In this document: positions 1 through 32,499 of the stretch, piece after piece
Numbering within the stretch: position 1 is the first letter of the stretch
Layout of the letters: each line of letters opens with the position of its first letter
Assembly (NCBI GenBank): GCA_017617355.1
Contig: JAFZWI010000129.1
Location: forward strand, 33,673 to 97,672
Direction of reading: 5' to 3'
Length of the DNA: 64,000 bases
Origin: Salinivirgaceae bacterium
GTDB lineage: Bacteria; Bacteroidota; Bacteroidia; Bacteroidales; SZUA-534
The notes under the pieces: generated by a model
What the model was told of the DNA's origin: nothing
Database searches by the model: none
The model's input: the letters and a program-made list of their open reading frames with translations, nothing else
Made by a program: the position numbers and the translations under genes

Positions 1-1
1 C

Positions 2-898
2 CTGACAGAAATGTCGATGCCCGCGATTAGGGAAAACTTCTATAAGTTTGAGGACTTTTATACCAACCGTTTCAGACGAACCGCAAAGAAATATTTTGAC
101 AATGATTTTAGCGAAATTGTTGATGATGAGAAGGTTGAACGGTTTGTCTGCGGTAGCGACACCATTTTCTGCATTGACGAGTTCAAGGGATTTGCCGAAG
201 GTTATTACGCCAATTTCGACTGTATGAAGGGCAAAAGCATTTCGTATGCGGCAAGTTTTGGCGATTCGCACTTTTCAGACGACGATTACAAGACCTTGAA
301 ACAACGCCTTCAAAACTTCAAGGCGTTGGGACTGAGGGAGAACGATATGGTGGATTATGTCAAAAGTCAGGTCAATGTGCTTGTTCAGCGGACTATCGAC
401 CCTACATTGCTTCTGAAACAAGATGACTACGACACCATAGCCGCAGAAAGACTTGTCGTCGAAAAATACCTTTTGCTATATTCACGCAGACACAACGCGC
501 AGATGTACGCATTCGCTGAAAAAATCGCAAAGGAACGCAAACTCAAAATTGTTGATATCAGTTTGAAAGCTGTCGGCGAAAAAGACCACATTCCGTATTA
601 TCAGGCGGGAGTTGAGGAGTTTCTGTCGCTCGTAAAATATGCAGAATGTGTGGTAACAAACTCGTTCCACGGAATAATTCTCAGCGTTCAATATAGGCGG
701 CAGTTCTATGGCTTTACACGTCAAGAGTGCAACACCAAGATTAATGAACTTATGGAACTTTTCGGACTAAGCGGCTGCCTTTTAGTGACGGGCGACGAAA
801 AGACATTGGAAATCGACTACGAAAAAGTCCATTCAAACATCGACAAGGCGCGTACAAAGTCGTTGGAATTTTTGAAAAAGAGTTTGGAGTTGTTGTAA
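2..898 (+). CDS. polysaccharide pyruvyl transferase family protein (5' end probably cut by window edge)
   Basis: ORF 11..898 and the frame stays open to nt 2. C-terminal VVTNSFHGIILS region is typical of CsaB/WcaK-like pyruvyl transferases. Followed by its usual F420H2-dehydrogenase-like partner. Confidence 0.7.
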   Translation: MTEMSMPAIRENFYKFEDFYTNRFRRTAKKYFDNDFSEIVDDEKVERFVCGSDTIFCIDEFKGFAEGYYANFDCMKGKSISYAASFGDSHFSDDDYKTLKQRLQNFKALGLRENDMVDYVKSQVNVLVQRTIDPTLLLKQDDYDTIAAERLVVEKYLLLYSRRHNAQMYAFAEKIAKERKLKIVDISLKAVGEKDHIPYYQAGVEEFLSLVKYAECVVTNSFHGIILSVQYRRQFYGFTRQECNTKINELMELFGLSGCLLVTGDEKTLEIDYEKVHSNIDKARTKSLEFLKKSLELL

Positions 899-2121
899 TG
901 AAGAACATTTCCGAAAATTTTGACAAGAATAATTGTTGTGGCTGCGAGGCTTGCGTACAAGTCTGCCCCCAAAAGGCGGTATGTATGAAAGAAGACGGTG
1001 AGGGATTTAGGTATCCCGAAGTTAATTTTGATTTGTGCGTTGACTGCGGATTGTGCCGAAAAATCTGTCAGTACATTGAATCCGTGGAAAAAAACACCGA
1101 AGAGCAACTCGCTTTTGGCGGGCATATCAATGACAGCGAAATCCTCAACGAAAGTACTTCGGGCGGGGCTTTTTCGGCTATTGCTGATTGTTTTTGTGAT
1201 GAAAACTATGTGATTTTCGGAGCGGAGTCAAAAGGACTTGATGTCTTTCATTCTTACATAATGGACAAAAAAGATTTGGCGCGATTCCGCCGTTCAAAAT
1301 ATTCACAAAGCATAATTGGCACTTCGTATGCTGATGCCGAGAAATTTTTGAAAGACGGCAAGAAAGTTCTTTTTTCGGGGACACCATGTCAGATTGCGGG
1401 ATTGAAAGCATTTTTGAGAGGACGACAATACACTAATCTTCTAACTGTTGAAGTGATTTGCGAAGGCGTGCCTTCGCCGCTGTTTGTCAGAAAGTTGGAC
1501 GAAAAAATCAGAAAAACCAAAAACGCATATATCACCGACCTCGATTATAGATACAAGGATTCCAACAAGTGGGATTATGAAGTGATGCGCATTTCATACA
1601 CATCACTTCATAATTCCGCCAGTGGAACTATCAAGAGCGACCGATGGTTTAATCCGTTTTGGTCGGTGTGGCTCAATCACCTGATGAGCCGCCCTTCGTG
1701 TTACGGTTGCCTTTACACGACACACAACCGTGTCGCGGACATTTCGCTCGGCGATTTGTGGGGAGTGCATTTGTATTGTCCCGACTTGTACAATTCTAAC
1801 AGGGGAGCGTCCTTGATTATCGCCAATACGAAGCATGGTAAAATGATTGTCGAAACAATCTTGGAAGAAAATTTCACAGGGCGTGAACTCGATTTTTCGC
1901 AGGCGTTGAAATACCAAGGTCCGATGCGGAAATCTATTGCTGAAAATCCTGACAGAGAAAGGTTTATGAATGATTTGCATACAATGGATTACGATTCGTT
2001 GTGCAAAAAATGGGCAAAGCCGTCAAGTCTGAAACTTTTGATTTCAAAATACGTCTATGGCACCAACCGACAGAAGGTTTGGTGGTGGAAAATGAAAAAC
2101 AGATTTAAATCACAGAAATAA
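898..2121 (+). CDS. coenzyme F420 hydrogenase/dehydrogenase beta-subunit-like FeS protein
   Basis: Two ferredoxin-type Cys clusters at the N-terminus (CCGCEACVQVCP, CVDCGLCRKIC). TAATG overlap with the pyruvyl transferase gene. This pairing is common in pyruvylated-glycan loci. Confidence 0.7.
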   Translation: MKNISENFDKNNCCGCEACVQVCPQKAVCMKEDGEGFRYPEVNFDLCVDCGLCRKICQYIESVEKNTEEQLAFGGHINDSEILNESTSGGAFSAIADCFCDENYVIFGAESKGLDVFHSYIMDKKDLARFRRSKYSQSIIGTSYADAEKFLKDGKKVLFSGTPCQIAGLKAFLRGRQYTNLLTVEVICEGVPSPLFVRKLDEKIRKTKNAYITDLDYRYKDSNKWDYEVMRISYTSLHNSASGTIKSDRWFNPFWSVWLNHLMSRPSCYGCLYTTHNRVADISLGDLWGVHLYCPDLYNSNRGASLIIANTKHGKMIVETILEENFTGRELDFSQALKYQGPMRKSIAENPDRERFMNDLHTMDYDSLCKKWAKPSSLKLLISKYVYGTNRQKVWWWKMKNRFKSQK

Positions 2122-3179
2122 TGTACTACTTGAATCCACGCATAGAAAATCTATTCAGGATTTTCGACCAAAATGAAAGGAAGGATTACCTTCGTTTGGA
2201 TTTGAATGAAAATCCAGGAGGTCTTCCCAAAGAGTTCATTGAAAAGGTTTTGAAGGACATTACACCGCAATTCGTTGCTCAATATCCTGAAACTCTTCAT
2301 TTTACAGAAGTTCTTGCGAAGTTTCTCAATACCGACATATCGCATTTGTGTCTTGTGAATGGCTCGGCAGAAGGCATAAGGTATGTGATTCAGGCTTTTA
2401 CCTCTGAAAATGGTAGAATTGTCGGGGTCGTGCCGTCGTACTTTATGTTTCAAGTTTATTCTGAAATGTACGGCAGAAACTTTGTCAAAGTGCCTTATAA
2501 CGAGGATTTGACAATGAGCATAGACAACATCATTAGCGAAATGACTGACGACACACAGTTGTTGATTCTTCTAAACCCAAACAATCCAATGGGCAACGTA
2601 TACTCGGAGGATGAATTCGAAACTTTGTTCGAAACCGCCAACCAAAAACAGATTACAATATTGGTTGACGAGGCCTACCATTATTTCTACCCGAAGACGT
2701 TCATCCAATACGCTCTTAATAAAGAACATGTTTTTGTAACACGGACATTCTCAAAATTGTTCTCAATGGCTGGTTGCAGGCTAGGATATGTTGCAGGTTG
2801 GCCCGATGGCATAAAAATGGTTCAAAAACTCTGCACCCCACACAACACCAATGCATTTGCAATGAAAATCGCGGAGGAGGTAATCAAGAATCCGAAAGTT
2901 TTGCAATCATTGATTGACAATTTCAACGAAGGTCGCAGCTATCTGATTGACATCCTTGATAACAACGGCTATCAGCACAAAGGCGAGGCTGGCAATTTCA
3001 TTTTTATCAAAACAAAAACGGATGCTCAAAAAATCGTCGAAAGAATGAAAGCCGAGAAAAAGATTTTGATAAAATCTTATCCGAATGTTGGTAACTTTGG
3101 AACTTGTCTGAGAGTTTCTATTGGAGAAAAGAAATATATGCAGATGTTTTGCGAGGCACTATTTGAATTAGACAGATGA
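2121..3179 (+). CDS. class I/II PLP aminotransferase, HisC/CobD-like
   Basis: 352 aa. LDLNENP N-terminal motif and FSKLFSMAGCRLGY PLP-lysine region. TAATG overlap upstream and ATGA overlap downstream. Confidence 0.75.
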   Translation: MYYLNPRIENLFRIFDQNERKDYLRLDLNENPGGLPKEFIEKVLKDITPQFVAQYPETLHFTEVLAKFLNTDISHLCLVNGSAEGIRYVIQAFTSENGRIVGVVPSYFMFQVYSEMYGRNFVKVPYNEDLTMSIDNIISEMTDDTQLLILLNPNNPMGNVYSEDEFETLFETANQKQITILVDEAYHYFYPKTFIQYALNKEHVFVTRTFSKLFSMAGCRLGYVAGWPDGIKMVQKLCTPHNTNAFAMKIAEEVIKNPKVLQSLIDNFNEGRSYLIDILDNNGYQHKGEAGNFIFIKTKTDAQKIVERMKAEKKILIKSYPNVGNFGTCLRVSIGEKKYMQMFCEALFELDR

Positions 3180-4510
3180 TAAAAGTTATAACCTACGGTA
3201 CATACGACTTGCTGCACTATGGTCATATAAGGCTGTTGGAGCGTGCAAAAGCATTGGGAGACTATTTGATAGTGGGTGTTACAGCCGATAATTTTGATTT
3301 GGCGCGGGGAAAAATTAATGTTCAACAGTCGTTGATGGAGCGCATTGAGGCGGTTCATGCAACTGGCATAGCTGATGAAATAATAATCGAGGAGTACGAG
3401 GGGCAGAAAATTGATGATATCAAAAGGTACGGCGTTGACATTTTTACCGTTGGAAGCGATTGGGCTGGCAATTTTGACTATCTTAACGAATTCTGCAAGG
3501 TTATTTATTTGGATAGGACTCAGGGCGTTTCGAGTTCGGATTTGCGGGCAGAAAAGCGGGAATTACGATTTGGTTTGGTAGGAGAGTCATCTCTGCTAAA
3601 CAAATTTGAAGCTGAAAGTCAGTATGTGAACGGAGTAACAATAAGCGGCGTATGCAGTCAGAATACAAGTGCTTTTAACGAAAAGCTAAAAACGCTTCCG
3701 CTTGTTACCAGACAATTAGATGAATTGCTTAATGCCTCAGATGCGGTATACATTGTATCGCACCCGTCGAAACATTATGAGCAGATAAAAGCGGCTTTGA
3801 ATGCGGGTAAGCACGTTTTGTGCGAATCACCGATAGCAATTTCGTTGAAAGATTTTTATGAGTTGCAACAACTTGCCAATGACAGGAATTTGTTGCTAAT
3901 AGATTCTCTAAAGACTGCATATTCAACGGCTTACAACAGAATGCTGCTTTTGGTGAAAAGCGGCATAATTGGCGAAATTAAATCGGTAGATGCGGTCTGC
4001 ACAAGTTTGTCAGACTTGGAACGTACCGATGGCAAACCAACAGCCCACACTTGGAACAGCATTTGCGCGTGGGGACCTACTGCAATGTTGCCAATATTCC
4101 AATTATTAGGTGTTCAATATGTTGATAAACAAATGGTGTCGCACTTGATATCCGAAGATTTTGATTCGTTTACAAAAGTTTCGTTTGTCTATCCAAACGC
4201 GGTGGCGTCGATGATGGTAGGGAAAGGTGTCAAATCGGAAGGCGAATTGATAATTTCAGGCACAAAGGGTTACGTTTATGTACCCGCGCCGTGGTGGAAG
4301 ACGGATTATTTCGAAGTCCGTTATGAAAACCCAGCCAACAACAAGCGATATTTCTATCAATTGGACGGTGAAGGAATACGTTACGAGATGGTTTCGTTCT
4401 TGAAAGCAATTCAATCGGGCAAAAACTATCAATATATCACTTACGCTCAATCAGAAGCCGTGATAAAACTTGTTGAGGATTTTTATGCTGGGGAGATTGT
4501 GAAAATCTAA
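3176..4510 (+). CDS. fusion protein: TagD-like cytidylyltransferase + Gfo/Idh/MocA-type oxidoreductase
   Basis: The first ~125 aa are near-canonical glycerol-3-phosphate cytidylyltransferase (VITYGTYDLLHYGHIRLLERAK, GSDW, RTQGVSSS). The rest starts with a Rossmann-like RFGLVGES segment and has HVLCESPIA, a variant of the EKP motif. Confidence 0.8.
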   Translation: MIKVITYGTYDLLHYGHIRLLERAKALGDYLIVGVTADNFDLARGKINVQQSLMERIEAVHATGIADEIIIEEYEGQKIDDIKRYGVDIFTVGSDWAGNFDYLNEFCKVIYLDRTQGVSSSDLRAEKRELRFGLVGESSLLNKFEAESQYVNGVTISGVCSQNTSAFNEKLKTLPLVTRQLDELLNASDAVYIVSHPSKHYEQIKAALNAGKHVLCESPIAISLKDFYELQQLANDRNLLLIDSLKTAYSTAYNRMLLLVKSGIIGEIKSVDAVCTSLSDLERTDGKPTAHTWNSICAWGPTAMLPIFQLLGVQYVDKQMVSHLISEDFDSFTKVSFVYPNAVASMMVGKGVKSEGELIISGTKGYVYVPAPWWKTDYFEVRYENPANNKRYFYQLDGEGIRYEMVSFLKAIQSGKNYQYITYAQSEAVIKLVEDFYAGEIVKI

Positions 4511-4562
4511 AAGTGAAATGATGGTCTTTATTGTATTTTGACTTAAAAATATTGATAATAAA

Positions 4563-5399
4563 ATGATTAGCGATATTATTCAATCCCAATTGCGGGCAAA
4601 ATACAATCCCGAAGGTTCGCAATTAAGACAAATGCAACTTCGGGAACTGGCATTATTGGTTGAATTTGACAGAATTTGTAGAAAACACAACATTGACTAT
4701 TGGCTTGATTCAGGGACACTAATAGGCGCTGTGCGACACGGAGGTTTCATTCCATGGGACGATGACATTGATGTGTGTGTGCAGAGAAAAGACCGTAAAA
4801 AATTAAGAGCTGCAATGTCAGAAAGTCTTGGTAATGAATACGATTATTCCGAATCCGGAACAGAAACCAATTATTTTAAATATTCTGGTTTAGAGAAAAA
4901 AGTAAAACGTCCTGTAACTAGGTTATATGACAAAAAAGCCTCAATTACAAGGACGTTTAAAGAAGTTCCCGTTGTTGTTAATGAGAATTTGTGGCTTGAT
5001 ATATGGGAAATGGCGCCAGGTACTATTTGGGCGAAAAAAATAATTGAGAAGACCTATGGAAAATGCTTGCGCAGAGTATGGAATTATGTGAACGATGGTG
5101 ATTTCAAACACTTTGTTGCGAAAGTCGCATATCCATTCATGATTCTTTTAAAACTAATAGTAAGTGGTTGGTGTAAAGTATTTCATAAGGAGACGTTGGT
5201 TAGTTATGGAAATACGTTTTTTAGTATAAGGAGAGTGTCTGAAGTGTTTCCGCTTATTGAAATTGAATTTGAGGGGAGAAAGTTTAAAGCACCGAATAAT
5301 GTTGATGCTTATTTGAGACGCATATATGGTAATTATATGGAAATACCTTCGGCAGACAAGATCGAAACTCACAATATTAAGGAAGTTAAGATTGAATGA
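4563..5399 (+). CDS. LicD family phosphotransferase
   Basis: DYWLDSGTLIGAVRHGGFIPWDDDIDV and C-terminal YLRRIYGNYMEIP are LicD signatures. Confidence 0.8.
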   Translation: MISDIIQSQLRAKYNPEGSQLRQMQLRELALLVEFDRICRKHNIDYWLDSGTLIGAVRHGGFIPWDDDIDVCVQRKDRKKLRAAMSESLGNEYDYSESGTETNYFKYSGLEKKVKRPVTRLYDKKASITRTFKEVPVVVNENLWLDIWEMAPGTIWAKKIIEKTYGKCLRRVWNYVNDGDFKHFVAKVAYPFMILLKLIVSGWCKVFHKETLVSYGNTFFSIRRVSEVFPLIEIEFEGRKFKAPNNVDAYLRRIYGNYMEIPSADKIETHNIKEVKIE

Positions 5400-5447
5400 A
5401 ATGCGATAGAGTGATGCTCCGATAATAGAAAGAATAAAGAGTGAATT

Positions 5448-6779
5448 ATGAGGCTTGAAATAATCAGTAAGATAAAAGGAATGTTCTCACTATCGTTTTG
5501 GGATAGTGTTTATAAAACGGTCACATTTGGTGATTTCCTTATTGCAGCATTCCCGTTTTGTTTGAAGTTGGATGTGAAAAGATCTGCAAGAAAACGCAAA
5601 AAGTTTGTTGCGACATTGAAAAACAAACCGAAAATCACTGTGGCTTTTTTCTTACAGAGTCCATCTATGTGGAAGTTTGATAGGCTGTATTGGCTATTTG
5701 AAAAAAATGACCGCTTTGAACCTGTAGTGGTTATATGTCCGTTTAATGTTCATTCGAATTATGATAGTAACGAGACGCTGAGTGTGATGAAAAAGTCGGA
5801 GGAATTCGTGAAAAAAATAGGTTATCGTTATATTCAGACATTTGATTTTGAACAAAATAAATGGCTGGATATTAAACAAACTTTAAATCCCGATGTCATT
5901 TTCTATACAAAGCCATACAAGGATACGCTTCCCCAATATCATATCTATAAGTTCAAAGACCGTTTGAATTGTTACGCCCCGTATGGAGTAATGTGTATTG
6001 ATAATTACCGGACATTCTACAACTTGCCGTTTTATAATCTGTTATGGCGATATTTTGTTGAAACCACTTATCAGAAGAGTTATTCACAGCAATATCAAAT
6101 ATGTGGCGGTGCAAATACTCAAGTTGTGGGCAGTTTGGGAATGGAAACGCTATTGTTGCCAGATTATAAGCCTGTTGATGTGTGGAAACCGCAAACAAAA
6201 CGCAAGAAGCGTATTATTTGGGCGCCTCATCACACGGTCGATTATCTGTTCAATTTTTCCAACTTTTTCACCTATTGTGATTTCATGTTCGAGTTAGCCG
6301 ATAGATACAAAGACGAGATTCAAATAGCTTTCAAGCCGCATCCGGTGCTGAAATTTAAATTGATAAACCTTTGGGGCGCAGAGAAGACAGAATCTTACTA
6401 TCAGCGTTGGCGCGATTTGCCGAATGGCCAGCTTGAGGAAGGTTATTATACCGACCTTTTCCTGACTTCTGACGCTATGGTTCACGATAGTGTTTCGTTT
6501 TCGGCAGAGTATCTCTATGCGCATAAGCCGACTATGTTCATTGTGAAAGATGAACACACAATTGATCATTGGAATACATTTGGTATTAAGTGTTTCGAAT
6601 TACACTATCATGCGCATCAACCGGCTGATGTTGAAGAATATATCAAGAATGTAGTGATTGCCGGCAATGACACCAAAGCTGCCGAACGTGATGATTTTTA
6701 CCGCAATTATCTGTATCCGAAAGACGGGGTGATGCCGTCGCAAAAGATTGTGGATGAAATTATTGAGCAAATCAAATAA
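5448..6779 (+). CDS. CDP-glycerol glycerophosphotransferase (TagB/TagF)-like protein
   Basis: KRIIWAPHHT, AFKPHPVLK and LTSDAMVHDSVSFSAEYLYAHKPTMF resemble the Glyphos_transf core. The start codon is uncertain. Confidence 0.55.
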   Translation: MRLEIISKIKGMFSLSFWDSVYKTVTFGDFLIAAFPFCLKLDVKRSARKRKKFVATLKNKPKITVAFFLQSPSMWKFDRLYWLFEKNDRFEPVVVICPFNVHSNYDSNETLSVMKKSEEFVKKIGYRYIQTFDFEQNKWLDIKQTLNPDVIFYTKPYKDTLPQYHIYKFKDRLNCYAPYGVMCIDNYRTFYNLPFYNLLWRYFVETTYQKSYSQQYQICGGANTQVVGSLGMETLLLPDYKPVDVWKPQTKRKKRIIWAPHHTVDYLFNFSNFFTYCDFMFELADRYKDEIQIAFKPHPVLKFKLINLWGAEKTESYYQRWRDLPNGQLEEGYYTDLFLTSDAMVHDSVSFSAEYLYAHKPTMFIVKDEHTIDHWNTFGIKCFELHYHAHQPADVEEYIKNVVIAGNDTKAAERDDFYRNYLYPKDGVMPSQKIVDEIIEQIK

Positions 6780-6807
6780 ACAAGTTTACCAAAGATTAAA
6801 CGCACTG

Positions 6808-7899
6808 ATGAAGAAACTTTTATTCATAAGATATAAGAAAACCGCCAATGTTTTTGAAGGGGGGGAGCAAGTGTCACAGAAGAACTGGAATGTTTTGACG
6901 CATTTGCTCGGAGAGGAAAATGTTTGCACCTATTATATTCACGATGAAACTCAAAAACGTTCTGTTTTTGAATACCTAAAAGGCATATTCTGGTTGCCGT
7001 TCGGTTATTTCTTTGGGCTTACACCTCGGCGCACAAAAGAAATTTTGTCTATGGCCAAAGATTATGACTATGTGTTTGTCGACCGCAGCATTTTTGGAAT
7101 AATAGCCCGGAAATTGAAAACAAGGGGATACAAAGGTCGTGTAATCTGTTTTTTCCATAATGTTGAAAGTGTTTATTTTAAGGCAAAACTTGAAGGCAAA
7201 CCATGGTGTGGTGTAGTTATCCGTTGTGCCGATAAGAATGACCGTTGGAGCTGTCAGTATGCTGACCGGGTAGTCATGCTAAATGACAGGGATCAAGCAA
7301 CCATCAAAGAATTTTATGGGCGCAATGCCGATGCTCTGATTCCTGTAGCATTCCGCGATAAGTACCAGAGAATCAATTATATACAGGAAATGACCAGACA
7401 AAAGCCTGTTTGTTTGTTCTTGGGCGCTTATTTTGAGCCCAACTGTGAGGGCATCGAATGGTTCGCAGAGAATGTATATCCACACGTCAACATCAGAATG
7501 AAAATTGTAGGCAAAGGAATGAGTAAGATACGGGATAAATACCGAATTCCGGACAATGTGGATGTAATAAGCGACGCACCCGATTTGCTTCCATATTTTG
7601 AGGATGCCGATATTATGATTCTGCCAATATTTAAAGGAAGTGGAATGAAGGTTAAGACATGTGAAAGCCTTATGTACGGTAAAAATATTATTGCTACAGA
7701 TGAGGCTTTTGAAGGTTATGTGCTTGATTATGATAAAGCTGGCGGCAAATGCAATACTGCAAATGAGTTTATTTCAGTCATTCAGTCATTCATTGATAAT
7801 CCACGTCCCAAATTCAATCAGTATTGCCGCAACATTTTCCTCCAAAAATACTCTGAGGAGAGCGTGGTAGAATCGTTCCGGAAAACACTTGAATTTTGA
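6808..7899 (+). CDS. glycosyltransferase, GT-B fold (GT4-like)
   Basis: C-terminal GSGMKVKTCESLMYGKNIIATDEAFEG region. ATG at 6808 is preferred over TTG at 6748, which overlaps the upstream gene. Confidence 0.65.
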   Translation: MKKLLFIRYKKTANVFEGGEQVSQKNWNVLTHLLGEENVCTYYIHDETQKRSVFEYLKGIFWLPFGYFFGLTPRRTKEILSMAKDYDYVFVDRSIFGIIARKLKTRGYKGRVICFFHNVESVYFKAKLEGKPWCGVVIRCADKNDRWSCQYADRVVMLNDRDQATIKEFYGRNADALIPVAFRDKYQRINYIQEMTRQKPVCLFLGAYFEPNCEGIEWFAENVYPHVNIRMKIVGKGMSKIRDKYRIPDNVDVISDAPDLLPYFEDADIMILPIFKGSGMKVKTCESLMYGKNIIATDEAFEGYVLDYDKAGGKCNTANEFISVIQSFIDNPRPKFNQYCRNIFLQKYSEESVVESFRKTLEF

Positions 7900-28958: not shown

Positions 28959-30257
28959 ATGAAAACAGTCTATTGCGGTATGAGTGCCGATTTAATTCAC
29001 CACGGGCACTTGAACATCATTCATGAGGCGATGAAACTTGGAGAGGTTACTGTTGGTGTTCTTACCGACGAGGCAATTGCAAGTTATAAAAGACTACCGT
29101 ACCTGACATATGAGCAGCGTGCGGAAATTGTTGCAAACATTAAAGGGGTCGAAAGAGTTGTTCCGCAAACGACTCTGGACTATGTGCCTAACCTTGAAAA
29201 ACTTAAACCTGATTACGTTGTTCACGGTGACGATTGGCTCACGGGTGTTCAGCAGGAAACGCGGCAACTAGTGATAGACTGTATAGCAAAATGGGGCGGC
29301 AAAGTAGTTGATATTCCATACACACCAGGAATTTCTTCAACAGCTCTAAATGCCGAAGTTCGCGAGATTGGTACAACGCCTGAGATCCGTCAGAGAATGC
29401 TAAGACGGCTTATTGCGGCAAAACCGATTGTGCGCATTATGGAAAGCCATTCGGGTTTGACAGGTCTTATCATTGAGAAGACGAAAGTCAAGGTCAACAA
29501 CAAGACCGAAGAGTTTGACGGTATGTGGGCAAGTTCGTTGACAGATTCAACAAGCAAGGGCAAACCCGATATTGAGGCCGTGGATTTGACAACAAGACTT
29601 CACGGTTTGAACGATGCGCTTGAATGCACAACAAAACCAGTGATTTTTGATGGTGATACAGGTGGCAAAATAGAACATTTCGTATTTACAGTCAGAACTT
29701 TGGAACGGTTGGGAGTTTCTGCGGTTATTATTGAGGATAAGGTTGGTTTGAAGAAAAACTCATTATTCGGAACCGATGCGATCCAAACGCAAGATTCAAT
29801 CGAAGGTTTTTCTGAAAAAATCAGAGCGGGAAAAAGAGCACAAATCGCGCAGGATTTTATGATAATTGCCCGTTGCGAGAGCCTTATCGCAGGAAAATCG
29901 GTTGAAGATGCTCTTGAACGTTGCTTCGCATATGTTGAGGCGGGGGCTGATGGCATTATGATTCATAGCAAGAACAAATCTGGCGAGGACATTAAGGAAT
30001 TCTGCCAGAAATTCCGTCAGAAACACACGTCAGTGCCGATTGTGGTAGTGCCTACAACCTACAACCAGATAACCGAAGAAGAACTTGCAAGTTGGGGCGT
30101 GAATGTTGTTATCTACGCAAACCATATGTTGCGTTCGGCATATCCAGCAATGGTGAACACTGCAAAATCAATTCTTACTCACCACCGTTCGCTCGAGGCA
30201 AACGATATGTGTATGAGTGTCAAAGAAATACTTGAACTTATTCCTGGTACAAAATAG
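28959..30257 (+). CDS. pepM: fusion protein: cytidylyltransferase-like domain + phosphoenolpyruvate mutase
   Basis: The N-terminal ~135 aa have the HxGH signature ([15 protein letters not shown]) and HGDDW. The rest aligns by eye along the full length of PEP mutase ([49 protein letters not shown]). Confidence 0.9.
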
Positions 30258-31372
30258 TGGAACAGACGGCAATTTTTTCCGATAAAGGTTACGATGAATT
30301 TGGAAAGCAATTCCTTGACCGCGGCATAAAAAGAATCATTGTTGTCTGCGGTTCGTCTTTCAAGAAACTCTCTGTCGGAAAGTACATAACAGATTTTTTT
30401 GCTGCGAACAATATAGAAATCGTCTTCTTTTCTGATTACCAGCCTAATCCCGATTATGAATCGGTAGTGAAAGGTGTTGATGTATTCAGGAAAAATGAAT
30501 GCGATTCGATTCTTGCTGTGGGCGGAGGAAGTGCAATGGATGTGGCAAAATGCATAAAACTCTATGCAACAATGCCATTGGGTAGCGATTACATCAATCA
30601 GAAAATCGAACCGAACAACATTCCTTTTTTTGCAATTCCGACAACAGCAGGGACAGGTAGCGAGGCAACTCGTTTTGCGGTTATATACTATAAGGGCGCA
30701 AAACAGTCTATTGCGGATTACAGTTGCATTCCGCAGGTTATCTTGTTCGACCCGTCGGTACTTGAAACATTGCCCGATTATCAGCGCAAGGTTACAATGC
30801 TTGACGCTTTTTGCCACGCAGTAGAATCCTTTTGGTCGGTCAATTCGACAGATGAGAGCAAGGCATATTCGAAAGACGCGATAAGGTTGATTCTCAATAA
30901 TATGGGTTCGTATTTGAAAAACGAATACGATGGCAACAGGAATATGCTGATGGCTGCGAACATCGCAGGAAAGGCCATAAACATAACGCAAACAACGGCG
31001 GGACACGCAATGTGCTATAAACTGACATCGCTTTACGGAATCGCCCACGGGCACGCTGCCGCATTGTGCGTCAGTGAGTTATGGCCGTATATGATTGAGA
31101 ATACGGAAAAATGTATCGATAGTCGGGGGGGGAAATATCTTGATTCTGTTTTTGAAGAAATCGCAGAGGCGATGGGAGAGAAGTCCCCAATGGATGCGGC
31201 TGCTAAATTCAAGAATATAGTTGAATCGTTAGGATTGAAGGCGCCAAAAATCAAATCGGAAGGCGATTTTGATGTGCTGAAAAAATCAGTCAATCCGACA
31301 AGATTGAAAAACAATCCAGTCTTTCTTGATGAGGACACTATCGATATGCTATATCATAAAATATTGAAATAA
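30257..31372 (+). CDS. group III iron-containing alcohol dehydrogenase (phosphonoacetaldehyde reductase candidate)
   Basis: GGGSAMDVAKCI, PTTAGTGSE and the His cluster TAGHAMCYKL...AHGHAAAL. GTG start overlaps the pepM TAG stop and there is no nearby in-frame ATG. Confidence 0.75.
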   Translation: MEQTAIFSDKGYDEFGKQFLDRGIKRIIVVCGSSFKKLSVGKYITDFFAANNIEIVFFSDYQPNPDYESVVKGVDVFRKNECDSILAVGGGSAMDVAKCIKLYATMPLGSDYINQKIEPNNIPFFAIPTTAGTGSEATRFAVIYYKGAKQSIADYSCIPQVILFDPSVLETLPDYQRKVTMLDAFCHAVESFWSVNSTDESKAYSKDAIRLILNNMGSYLKNEYDGNRNMLMAANIAGKAINITQTTAGHAMCYKLTSLYGIAHGHAAALCVSELWPYMIENTEKCIDSRGGKYLDSVFEEIAEAMGEKSPMDAAAKFKNIVESLGLKAPKIKSEGDFDVLKKSVNPTRLKNNPVFLDEDTIDMLYHKILK

Positions 31373-31383
31373 AGAAATATAAA

Positions 31384-32499
31384 ATGAAAGTAGAGAATCT
31401 TTTAAATATAATAGGTGCCGATTTTTATACGGGTGTGCCTGACAGCCAGTTGAAGGCATTGTGCAACTGTTTGATGAACAAATATGGCATCGACCCGAAA
31501 CATCATATTATTGCGGCAAACGAGGGTAACTGCACGGCTTTGGCGGCAGGTTATCATCTGGCAACAGGCAAAGTACCCGTTGTTTATATGCAAAATTCTG
31601 GCGAGGGCAACATTATCAACCCCGTGGCGTCGCTGTTGAACGACAAGGTTTATGCTATCCCTGTGGTTTTTGTCATCGGGTGGCGCGGTGAGCCGGGTGT
31701 TCACGATGAGCCGCAACACATTTATCAAGGTGAAGTCACGGTGAAACTGCTTGACGATATGGGTATTCCGTCGTTCATAATTGGCAAAGAGACTACTGAC
31801 GAAGAAGTCGCGAAAGCGATGGAAGATTTCAAAAAGTTGCTTGCTCAAGGCAAGGATGTCGCGTTTGTGGTACGCAAGGGCGGACTCTCTTATGACGGTA
31901 AGGTTGAGTACAAAAATGACAACACAATGCTGCGCGAAGAGATTATCCGTCATATTGTGAATGTGTCAGGTGAGGATCCGATTGTCTCGACAACGGGCAA
32001 GGCTAGCCGCGAACTTTTCGAAATTCGTGAGGCAAACCACCAAAGCCATAAATATGATTTTCTGACGGTTGGTTCTATGGGGCACAGCTCGTCAATTGCG
32101 TTGGGTGTTGCTATCAACAAACCCGACAGGAAAATATGGTGCATTGACGGCGATGGCGCGGTTCTGATGCATATGGGTTCTATGGCCGTAATTGGTGCCA
32201 ATGCGCCTAAAAATCTCGTTCATGTTGTCATCAACAATTCGGCACACGAGACCGTTGGCGGCCAGCCGACAGTTGCGGACAAGATTGATTTAGTTGCCAT
32301 TGCAAAGGCTTGCGGCTATAAGAATGTTGTTTCTGTCGATTCGTTCGAAGCATTAGACAAAGCGCTGCAAGCTGCTAAAAATGCCAACGAATTAAGCCTT
32401 ATAGAAGTCAAGTGCTCAATCGGGGCCCGTGAGGATTTGGGCAGACCGACAACCACAGCAATCGAAAATAAGCAAGGATTTATGGAGTATTTGAGATAA
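31384..32499 (+). CDS. ppd: phosphonopyruvate decarboxylase (TPP-dependent)
   Basis: GVPDSQLK N-terminus and TPP motif IDGDGAVLMHMGSMAVIG...VINNSAHETVGGQ. 371 aa; sits with pepM. Confidence 0.85.
   Translation: MKVENLLNIIGADFYTGVPDSQLKALCNCLMNKYGIDPKHHIIAANEGNCTALAAGYHLATGKVPVVYMQNSGEGNIINPVASLLNDKVYAIPVVFVIGWRGEPGVHDEPQHIYQGEVTVKLLDDMGIPSFIIGKETTDEEVAKAMEDFKKLLAQGKDVAFVVRKGGLSYDGKVEYKNDNTMLREEIIRHIVNVSGEDPIVSTTGKASRELFEIREANHQSHKYDFLTVGSMGHSSSIALGVAINKPDRKIWCIDGDGAVLMHMGSMAVIGANAPKNLVHVVINNSAHETVGGQPTVADKIDLVAIAKACGYKNVVSVDSFEALDKALQAAKNANELSLIEVKCSIGAREDLGRPTTTAIENKQGFMEYLR

Follow-up and report, generated by a model that had tools for sequence, protein, structure and literature searches.

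In the TagD/TarD systems, in which glycerol-3-phosphate cytidylyltransferases serve the synthesis of teichoic acids and capsules together with TagF/TagB or LicD, an alcohol phosphate activated with cytidine diphosphate (CDP) is transferred to its acceptor as a phosphodiester. Here we describe a locus in a 64,000-nucleotide stretch of DNA from a rumen Salinivirgaceae bacterium (this whole stretch is called the window below), in which a HisC-like pyridoxal phosphate (PLP) aminotransferase (P0001), a fusion of a TagD-like cytidylyltransferase domain with a Gfo/Idh/MocA-fold domain (P0002), a LicD-family phosphotransferase (P0003) and a TagF-like protein (P0004) follow one another. The locus appears to use the same logic as the TagD/TarD systems and shares with them the HxGH and RTxGxSxx motifs, and in the way the module would operate it also resembles the CDP-choline/LicD decoration systems. 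In contrast to TagD/TarD, however, the cytidylyltransferase domain of P0002 is fused to a 317-residue Gfo-fold domain and is coupled to a PLP aminotransferase, and the predicted head group is an amino-alcohol and not glycerol.

The reaction that we propose for P0001, the conversion of dihydroxyacetone phosphate (DHAP) to serinol phosphate, has been proven for Cj1437 of the Campylobacter jejuni HS:2 capsule pathway (PMC11800397) and for RtxA's N-terminal domain in Bradyrhizobium (PMC3222319). Both are likened to P0001 by reaction, not by sequence, and Cj1437 also acts within capsule synthesis. In C. jejuni, however, serinol phosphate is amide-linked to glucuronate by an ATP-dependent ligase and then dephosphorylated, with neither a cytidylyltransferase nor a phosphodiester involved (PMC11800397). 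In the CDP-ribitol synthases Bcs1 of Haemophilus influenzae and TarI/TarJ of Staphylococcus aureus a keto-phosphate is reduced and the product is then cytidylylated, which is the order of steps we envisage for the ancestors of those fusion proteins that retain the catalytic EKP motif of the Gfo/Idh/MocA family (EKP-type fusions). This is an analogy and not a homology, as the folds differ: Bcs1 and TarI/TarJ combine an IspD-like cytidylyltransferase with a reductase of the short-chain (SDR) or medium-chain (MDR) dehydrogenase/reductase type. Moreover, the clade of fusions to which P0002 belongs (clade B, see below) has a degenerate reductase domain, and the substrate is expected to come from an aminotransferase.

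Two further comparisons concern the dehydrogenase fold. The pneumococcal CDP-2-glycerol genes, compared here by annotation, comprise a dehydrogenase (gtp1) and a nucleotidyl transferase (gtp2), which serve a head group of glycerol phosphate transferred by WchX; gtp3 is annotated as a phosphotransferase and not as an aminotransferase, and Gtp3 was thus discarded as a candidate aminotransferase homologue. A protein of the Gfo/Idh/MocA fold is genetically coupled to an aminotransferase, as it is here, in the pairs WbpB/WbpE and GnnA/GnnB, and GnnA (7bvj) is among the fold matches of P0002. The WbpB- and GnnA-type enzymes, which are sugar-nucleotide 3-dehydrogenases, keep the EKP lysine and are paired with DegT-family aminotransferases, whereas in our locus and its relatives the lysine is lost and the aminotransferases are of the HisC or class-V type.

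We propose, with a probability of about one half, that the four genes constitute a head-group module which makes a CDP-activated amino-alcohol phosphate, probably serinol phosphate, and attaches it to the capsule, and that the Gfo-like domain of the fusion is a degenerate relic. P0001, as a DHAP:glutamate aminotransferase, would transaminate DHAP to serinol phosphate (2-amino-1,3-propanediol 1-phosphate), the TagD-like domain would convert serinol phosphate and CTP to CDP-serinol, and LicD, the TagF-like enzyme, or both would transfer phospho-serinol onto the polysaccharide as a phosphodiester, yielding a zwitterionic substituent. The Gfo-like domain would derive from an ancestral reductase, the step of which was replaced by the aminotransferase in clade B, and would be kept under selection for a role outside canonical dehydrogenase chemistry, perhaps in oligomerisation or binding.

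The main support for this proposal comes from a correlation between the state of the Gfo-like active site and the enzyme encoded next to the fusion. All fusions partnered by an aminotransferase lack the EKP lysine and have ESP, ETP, EAP or ELP instead, while fusions that keep the GxGRIA, EKP and (S)YPLL motifs have no aminotransferase in six genome loci and three metagenomic contigs. Members of a third group lack both the lysine and an aminotransferase and have a FabG-like SDR ketoreductase encoded directly downstream (L007, L081, L082, L087, P0142 and P0186). The lysine-less P0420, found in a Wzy-containing locus, carries an N-terminal fusion to GpsA, the NAD(P)H-dependent reductase that converts DHAP to glycerol-3-phosphate, and directly upstream of the divergent lysine-less P0129 and P0137 an aminotransferase, HisC-like or class-V, is encoded once more. 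As SDR, GpsA and aminotransferase occupy the same slot, a keto-phosphate, most simply DHAP, is indicated as the branch-point substrate. The GpsA fusion together with the chemistry of the aminotransferase families likewise points to DHAP: HisC naturally uses imidazole acetol phosphate, a DHAP derivative whose C3 hydroxyl is replaced by an imidazole, and the substrates of SerC and AepZ are carbonyl compounds that carry a phospho or phosphono group. By analogy with the reductase-cytidylyltransferase systems, the ancestral fusion looks like a 'keto-phosphate reductase plus cytidylyltransferase', and loss of its reductase site would have been accompanied by recruitment of a different enzyme for the same carbonyl substrate, with SDR or GpsA giving the alcohol and the aminotransferase giving the amine.

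Some relatives of the fusion show other arrangements. The very large Metallophos/GDPD fusions keep EKP in all cases; among them, P0143, P0144, P0421, P0467 and about 70 others are giant proteins of 830-1494 residues that combine Metallophos, TagD-like and EKP-intact Gfo domains, often with GDPD, an enzyme that releases glycerol 3-phosphate. The locus of P0186 (L104) encodes a very divergent lysine-less fusion with a split thiamine diphosphate-dependent enzyme upstream and an SDR and a GT2-TagF fusion downstream, and is another way to feed the same cytidylyltransferase scaffold. In the locus of P0163 (L098), choline-kinase-like and fructosamine-kinase-like genes stand upstream of an EKP-type fusion, a setting that resembles the annotated kinase, nucleotidyltransferase and dehydrogenase make-up of pneumococcal gtp1-3.

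The loss of catalytic residues is evident from P0002 itself. Residues 131-240 match GFO_IDH_MocA (PF01408; E 3.5e-16, 60.4 bits), and the AlphaFold2 model of the protein (mean predicted local distance difference test score 90.2) contains the two-domain Gfo/Idh/MocA fold with a Rossmann and a C-terminal alpha/beta domain. The best Foldseek matches of the model are 3e9m, 3evn and 2o48 (dimeric dihydrodiol dehydrogenase), with target TM-scores of 0.81-0.86. The tripeptide ESP at residues 217-219 aligns with the EKP of 3evn, 3e9m and 4had, so that the catalytic lysine is gone. The motif HVLCESPIA, which the original prediction had quoted as the mark of a Gfo/Idh/MocA-type oxidoreductase, is thus evidence for a missing catalytic lysine, since ESP stands where the family has EKP. 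Position 218 varies across clade B between S, T, A and L. The dinucleotide loop reads GLVGESSLL in P0002 compared to GxxGxGRIA in the EKP-type relatives, and positions 137-142 are unconserved in the clade; the nearest solved relatives are also atypical here. T302 (in WGPTAM) replaces the tyrosine of the EKP-type (S)YPLL motif, for which we assume a catalytic role from dimeric dihydrodiol dehydrogenase. A comparison of the sequences carrying the clade B W-G-P motif (n=72, defined by that motif) with EKP-retaining relatives gives the exchanges H197 to P, K218 to S, F275 to C, K277 to S, L299 to W and S301/Y302 to P/T. As judged from these residues, the Gfo-like domain of P0002 is probably not a dehydrogenase, and it may serve as a scaffold. 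A complex prediction for P0001 and the Gfo-like domain, made with a docking scaffold in mind, gave a score of 0.00, which weighs neither for nor against binding.

The N-terminal domain, in contrast, retains the features of a cytidylyltransferase. Residues 5-124 match the Pfam CTP_transf_like model (E 1.2e-16), the N-terminal 127 residues match the solved TagD/TarD structures 1coz and 2b7l (E 4e-34), and the nucleotide-binding motifs are present as HYGH at 14-17 and RTQGVSSS at 114-121. Within R44-G45-K46 an arginine takes the place of TagD K44, one of the lysine pair K44/K46, whose role, like those of the motif residues, we take to be as described for TagD. The score against the TagD model TIGR01518 is 112.9 bits and lies under the equivalog cut-off of 165.4. 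The cytidylyltransferase domain is the most conserved stretch of the fusion protein.

The fusion architecture is widespread. It occurs in more than 8000 proteins of a 90%-clustered collection, in 367 representatives of a 50%-clustered library at E below 1e-30 and in at least 593 places in one-genome-per-species contigs, and its hosts include Bacteroidota, Lachnospiraceae, Oscillospiraceae, Erysipelotrichaceae, Collinsella, Akkermansia, Elusimicrobia, Synergistota and others. A search across the bacterial order identified it in 6 of 301 genomes, including the source genome; such scattered occurrence is what one would expect of a gene for capsule synthesis. Database names of the fusion are generic only (for example 'adenylyltransferase/cytidyltransferase family protein'), and we found no experimental characterisation of it in the literature searched. 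Beyond the C. jejuni amide pathway and RtxA, the literature searched contained nothing relevant on CDP-serinol, on phosphoserinol or serinol phosphodiesters, or on the fusion.

To describe the neighbourhoods, open reading frames around the fusion were called and clustered in 85 loci. The tree of the fusion separates two fully supported clades, and P0002 falls into clade B (64 rows; 100% support in the Shimodaira-Hasegawa-like approximate likelihood ratio test). An aminotransferase is part of the gene cluster in 57 of the 64 clade B loci and stands directly upstream of the fusion in 48, where the two genes are -11 to +42 nt apart and start and stop codons often overlap; three of the seven loci without an aminotransferase have less than 720 nt of upstream sequence. 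In two loci (L004 and L016), near-identical clade B fusions have KSP at the EKP position and a cytidine/dCMP deaminase gene then follows; L004 has no upstream aminotransferase, and in L016 the upstream sequence is too short to tell.

The partner enzymes belong either to the HisC-like class I/II or to the unrelated class V. The HisC-like partners form two subgroups, one 52-93% and the other about 40% identical to P0001, while the nearest models of the class-V partners are AepZ/PhnW, BhcA, pyridoxamine-pyruvate transaminase and SerC, with all scores below the cut-offs. A HisC-type partner occurs, for example, in Collinsella sp. TF06-26 (L046) and a class-V partner in Ruminococcaceae bacterium YAD3003 (L029). 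Fusions with one or the other kind of partner are intermixed on the tree, with 13-16 changes between the two kinds, and at no fusion position does the consensus differ between the two partner groups. The simplest reading of this partner swapping without a distinguishing fusion residue is one shared transamination product that is passed to the same cytidylyltransferase. The commonest further neighbour of the fusion is LicD (39 loci), and TagF-family genes are also usual. In 12 loci, all of clade B, GNAT acetyltransferase genes stand beside or between aminotransferase and fusion, which fits a product with a free amine that is acetylated in some lineages.

These data bear on several claims of the original prediction. 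It had made the co-occurrence of aminotransferase and fusion across genomes a check of its proposal, and this co-occurrence is found in most clade B loci. Its CDP-amino-polyol decoration pathway gains from the conserved aminotransferase-fusion unit and from the LicD and GNAT neighbours, but the role it had given to the oxidoreductase is not supported. Of its two routes, transamination of DHAP followed by cytidylylation is favoured, while oxidation at C2 followed by transamination is disfavoured by the lost Gfo residues and by the EKP-type fusions being without an aminotransferase. The fusion, for which no characterised example had been named, remains without one in the literature searched, but it is far from rare, given its abundance across many phyla.

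P0001 gives its best NCBIfam match to TIGR01141 hisC (228.7 bits, under the cut-off of 276.55) and a lower score of 152.8 bits to the model of the threonine-phosphate decarboxylase CobD. Its Schiff-base Lys212 (TFSK) aligns with K214 of Escherichia coli HisC, and an alignment of 20 homologues from such cassettes shows no variation at the PLP-site residues Lys212, N154, D183, Y186 and R220. HisC R335 corresponds to the invariant R331 of the P0001 alignment, R322 is replaced by lysine, and an alanine occupies the position of D85; from E. coli HisC, R335 and R322 are presumably phosphate-binding and D85 imidazole-binding residues. The N-terminal arm of the cassette HisC-like enzymes contains three extra invariant arginines (R13, R20 and R25). 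Homologues with 52-93% identity hold the same position in 11 other loci. A function of P0001 as housekeeping HisC was rejected based on its score below the hisC cut-off and its location in a capsule locus instead of a his operon. The only other HisC-like gene of the genome encodes a HisC/CobD-like PLP enzyme (hisC model 199 bits, below cut-off) and forms a second, comparable module (contig C84 of G000, L089:1471-4012) in a row with a LicC-like nucleotidyltransferase and a LicD-family phosphotransferase, with no his-operon genes adjoining. Neither HisC-like gene of this 82% complete genome resembles a housekeeping HisC.

Both putative transferases are recognised by profile. The LicD match of P0003 reaches 121.8 bits compared to a gathering threshold of 22.6 and covers profile positions 1-227 of 227. 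The Glyphos_transf match of P0004 is borderline (cut-off 22.1) and is confined to the C-terminal half. This protein has 966 homologues; most of the 120 closest carry PF04464, and some are named as members of the CDP-glycerol glycerophosphotransferase family.

Several observations weigh against serinol phosphate as the product. The product is inferred from the genetic context. Some enzymes of the HisC/CobD family act as decarboxylases, and for the HisC-type cassettes phosphoethanolamine or aminopropanol phosphate is a real rival. P0001 would then resemble Cj1436 or CobD and yield phosphoethanolamine from O-phospho-L-serine (or aminopropanol phosphate from threonine phosphate), the TagD-like domain would make CDP-ethanolamine and LicD would add phosphoethanolamine. 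A precedent exists in the C. jejuni capsule locus, where Cj1436 converts L-serine phosphate to ethanolamine phosphate (PMC11800397). The match of P0001 to the CobD model is consistent with such an activity, as is the homology of the cytidylyltransferase domain to the ethanolamine-phosphate cytidylyltransferase 3elb (E 1.5e-16). A further parallel is provided by four Lachnospiraceae loci (L050, L054, L063 and L075), where a GHMP kinase gene comes after a HisC-like gene and the fusion and overlaps the stop of the latter. These loci lie next to ddl, murI and aspartate aminotransferase and not in a capsule locus, and the kinase recalls the pairing of PduX kinase with CobD decarboxylase, which hints, by analogy, at a different substrate supply in this subgroup. 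We nevertheless consider a decarboxylase unlikely in our locus. The hisC model outscores CobD for P0001, a class-V enzyme repeatedly replaces the HisC-like gene on near-identical fusions, and the nearest families of that class-V enzyme are all transaminases. In addition, no fusion residue separates the partner groups, and the SDR and GpsA alternatives indicate a ketone as substrate.

The Gfo-like domain presents a second difficulty, as it shows no decay: clade B conserves the C-terminal half more strongly than the EKP-type relatives do, and the new residues are near-invariant in the W-G-P-type sequences (W299 in 72/72, C275 in 93%). The domain may have an unrecognised catalytic role. If so, the fusion could make CDP-glycerol, the Gfo-like domain could oxidise C2 by means of non-canonical residues, and the aminotransferase could turn the resulting CDP-dihydroxyacetone into CDP-serinol. 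This would agree with the fused state and strong conservation of the domain, including N152, K143 and P301 as further near-invariant clade residues, and with a cytidylyltransferase domain that resembles TagD as closely as it does in relatives lacking an aminotransferase. It would resemble, by analogy, the pairing of a Gfo dehydrogenase with an aminotransferase in WbpB/WbpE, and one might speculate that R13, R20 and R25 of the HisC-like enzymes bind the diphosphate. However, the EKP lysine is lost and variable, GxGRIA is unconserved and the His, Lys and Tyr of the EKP-type are replaced, and the relatives with an intact site are exactly those without an aminotransferase, the opposite of what such a route predicts. 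HisC-like and AepZ/SerC-like enzymes are, furthermore, known for phosphomonoester or phosphonate substrates and not for nucleotide-linked ones. Taken together, oxidation at the CDP-glycerol level appears improbable.

It is also conceivable that the fusion makes only CDP-glycerol for LicD/TagF-type transfer and that the aminotransferase serves an unrelated glycan step. The cytidylyltransferase domain, which is very close to TagD, differs between the aminotransferase-linked clade and the EKP-type fusions only at F/Y40 and I/L47; nothing in the domain suggests that its substrate has changed from a polyol phosphate to an amino-alcohol phosphate, and it may make CDP-glycerol as well, or instead. 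No second TagD-type gene that could feed the TagF-like enzyme was found in the source genome, which is 82% complete. Moreover, the TagF-like transferase is not specific to the amine version, since another genome of the family (L006) encodes a 60% identical protein after an EKP-type fusion that has no aminotransferase partner. The pairing of aminotransferase and fusion is nevertheless tight, often translationally coupled and found across many phyla, the loss of Gfo residues correlates with the presence of an aminotransferase, SDR or GpsA, and neither aminotransferase family is known for sugar-nucleotide substrates. This makes a CDP-glycerol-only function very improbable. A phosphonate route, in which an AepZ-like partner would lead to 2-aminoethylphosphonate, was rejected as a general explanation, as neither PEP (phosphoenolpyruvate) mutase nor phosphonopyruvate decarboxylase is among the recurrent neighbours. 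The window does contain a PEP mutase module at 28959-32499, which lies at the end of the next capsule locus and comprises a PEP mutase extended by 147 residues at its N-terminus (422.9 bits, above cut-off), an Fe-alcohol dehydrogenase and a phosphonopyruvate decarboxylase (475.9 bits) but no aminotransferase (AepZ); its head group looks like a hydroxyethylphosphonate-type and not an aminoethylphosphonate-type.

The features of the locus are listed below. Positions 1-7899 of the window represent the tail of a Bacteroidales-type capsule locus with every gene on the + strand. The four co-directional genes named by the original prediction were recovered as open reading frames with matches to the expected families, and profile, structure and AlphaFold2 fold matches agree with the division it had made of the fusion into a TagD-like N-terminal domain and a Gfo/Idh/MocA-type remainder. 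The motifs it had quoted (HYGH, GSDW, RTQGVSSS and HVLCESPIA) are present in the sequence, and the proposed translational coupling of aminotransferase and fusion is seen as an ATGA overlap at 3176-3179. The PLP gene is in turn joined to the upstream FrhB-like gene by a one-base TAATG overlap. In bovine-gut assemblies from other studies one contig bridges 2071-5447 and another 4337-7100 with the same gene order, which demonstrates that this order is real and not an assembly artefact. Short contigs of a bovine-gut metatranscriptome are at least 99% identical within the fusion and LicD genes, with DNA carry-over being possible. A pyruvyl transferase and FrhB-like pair lies next to, or between, aminotransferase and fusion in about 9 other loci; it was seen in L010, L019, L042, L045, L046, L061 and L069 and separates aminotransferase and fusion in L042 and L061.

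Table 1. Features at the start of the window, with the evidence for each assignment.
Feature	Position	Strand	Evidence
Polysaccharide pyruvyl transferase	2-898	+	Pfam PF04230
FrhB-like Fe-S protein	898-2121	+	PF04432 plus Fer4
HisC/CobD-family fold-type I PLP enzyme P0001, 352 aa	2121-3179	+	Pfam PF00155 Aminotran_1_2, E 5.5e-40
Whole fusion P0002	3176-4510	+	CTP_transf_like + GFO_IDH_MocA
TagD-like cytidylyltransferase domain of P0002 (residues 1-127)	3176-3556	+	TagD/TarD structure matches, motifs
Gfo/Idh/MocA-fold domain of P0002 (residues 128-444), degenerate catalytic motifs	3557-4510	+	Fold match
LicD-family phosphotransferase P0003	4563-5399	+	Pfam PF04991, E 6.2e-35
TagF/TagB-family CDP-alcohol phosphotransferase-like protein P0004	5448-6779	+	Pfam PF04464, 23.5 bits
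GT4 glycosyltransferase, final gene of the capsule locus	6748-7899	+	Pfam PF13692
UpxY antiterminator, opens the next capsule locus	8059		NF033644, 135.1 bits (cut-off 100)

The locus described here is one typical member of its family and adds to it a HisC-type partner that occurs with both LicD and TagF-like transferases. The family probably represents a head-group pathway that is common but uncharacterised and in which a pseudo-dehydrogenase domain has been kept. More broadly, and as a tentative extension, hundreds of gut and rumen species could use a previously undescribed donor, CDP-serinol or a close CDP-amino-alcohol, together with a conserved pseudo-enzyme domain to build zwitterionic capsules with phosphodiester-linked free amines. 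The supply of the one cytidylyltransferase would then have been rewired repeatedly, by way of an active Gfo domain, an SDR, GpsA or an aminotransferase. The family offers a natural experiment in which a dehydrogenase domain persists although its catalytic residues are lost and unrelated enzymes have assumed its step. A single biochemical characterisation would annotate thousands of genes, as the cassette is found in Bacteroidota, Firmicutes, Collinsella, Akkermansia and others. Glycerol phosphate, ribitol phosphate, choline phosphate and ethanolamine phosphate head groups shape how bacterial surfaces are recognised by hosts, phages and immune lectins. If our proposal is correct, phospho-serinol would be a new head group that needs a new donor, CDP-serinol, and carries a negative and a positive charge, a pattern that has been linked to the immunomodulatory zwitterionic capsules of Bacteroides.

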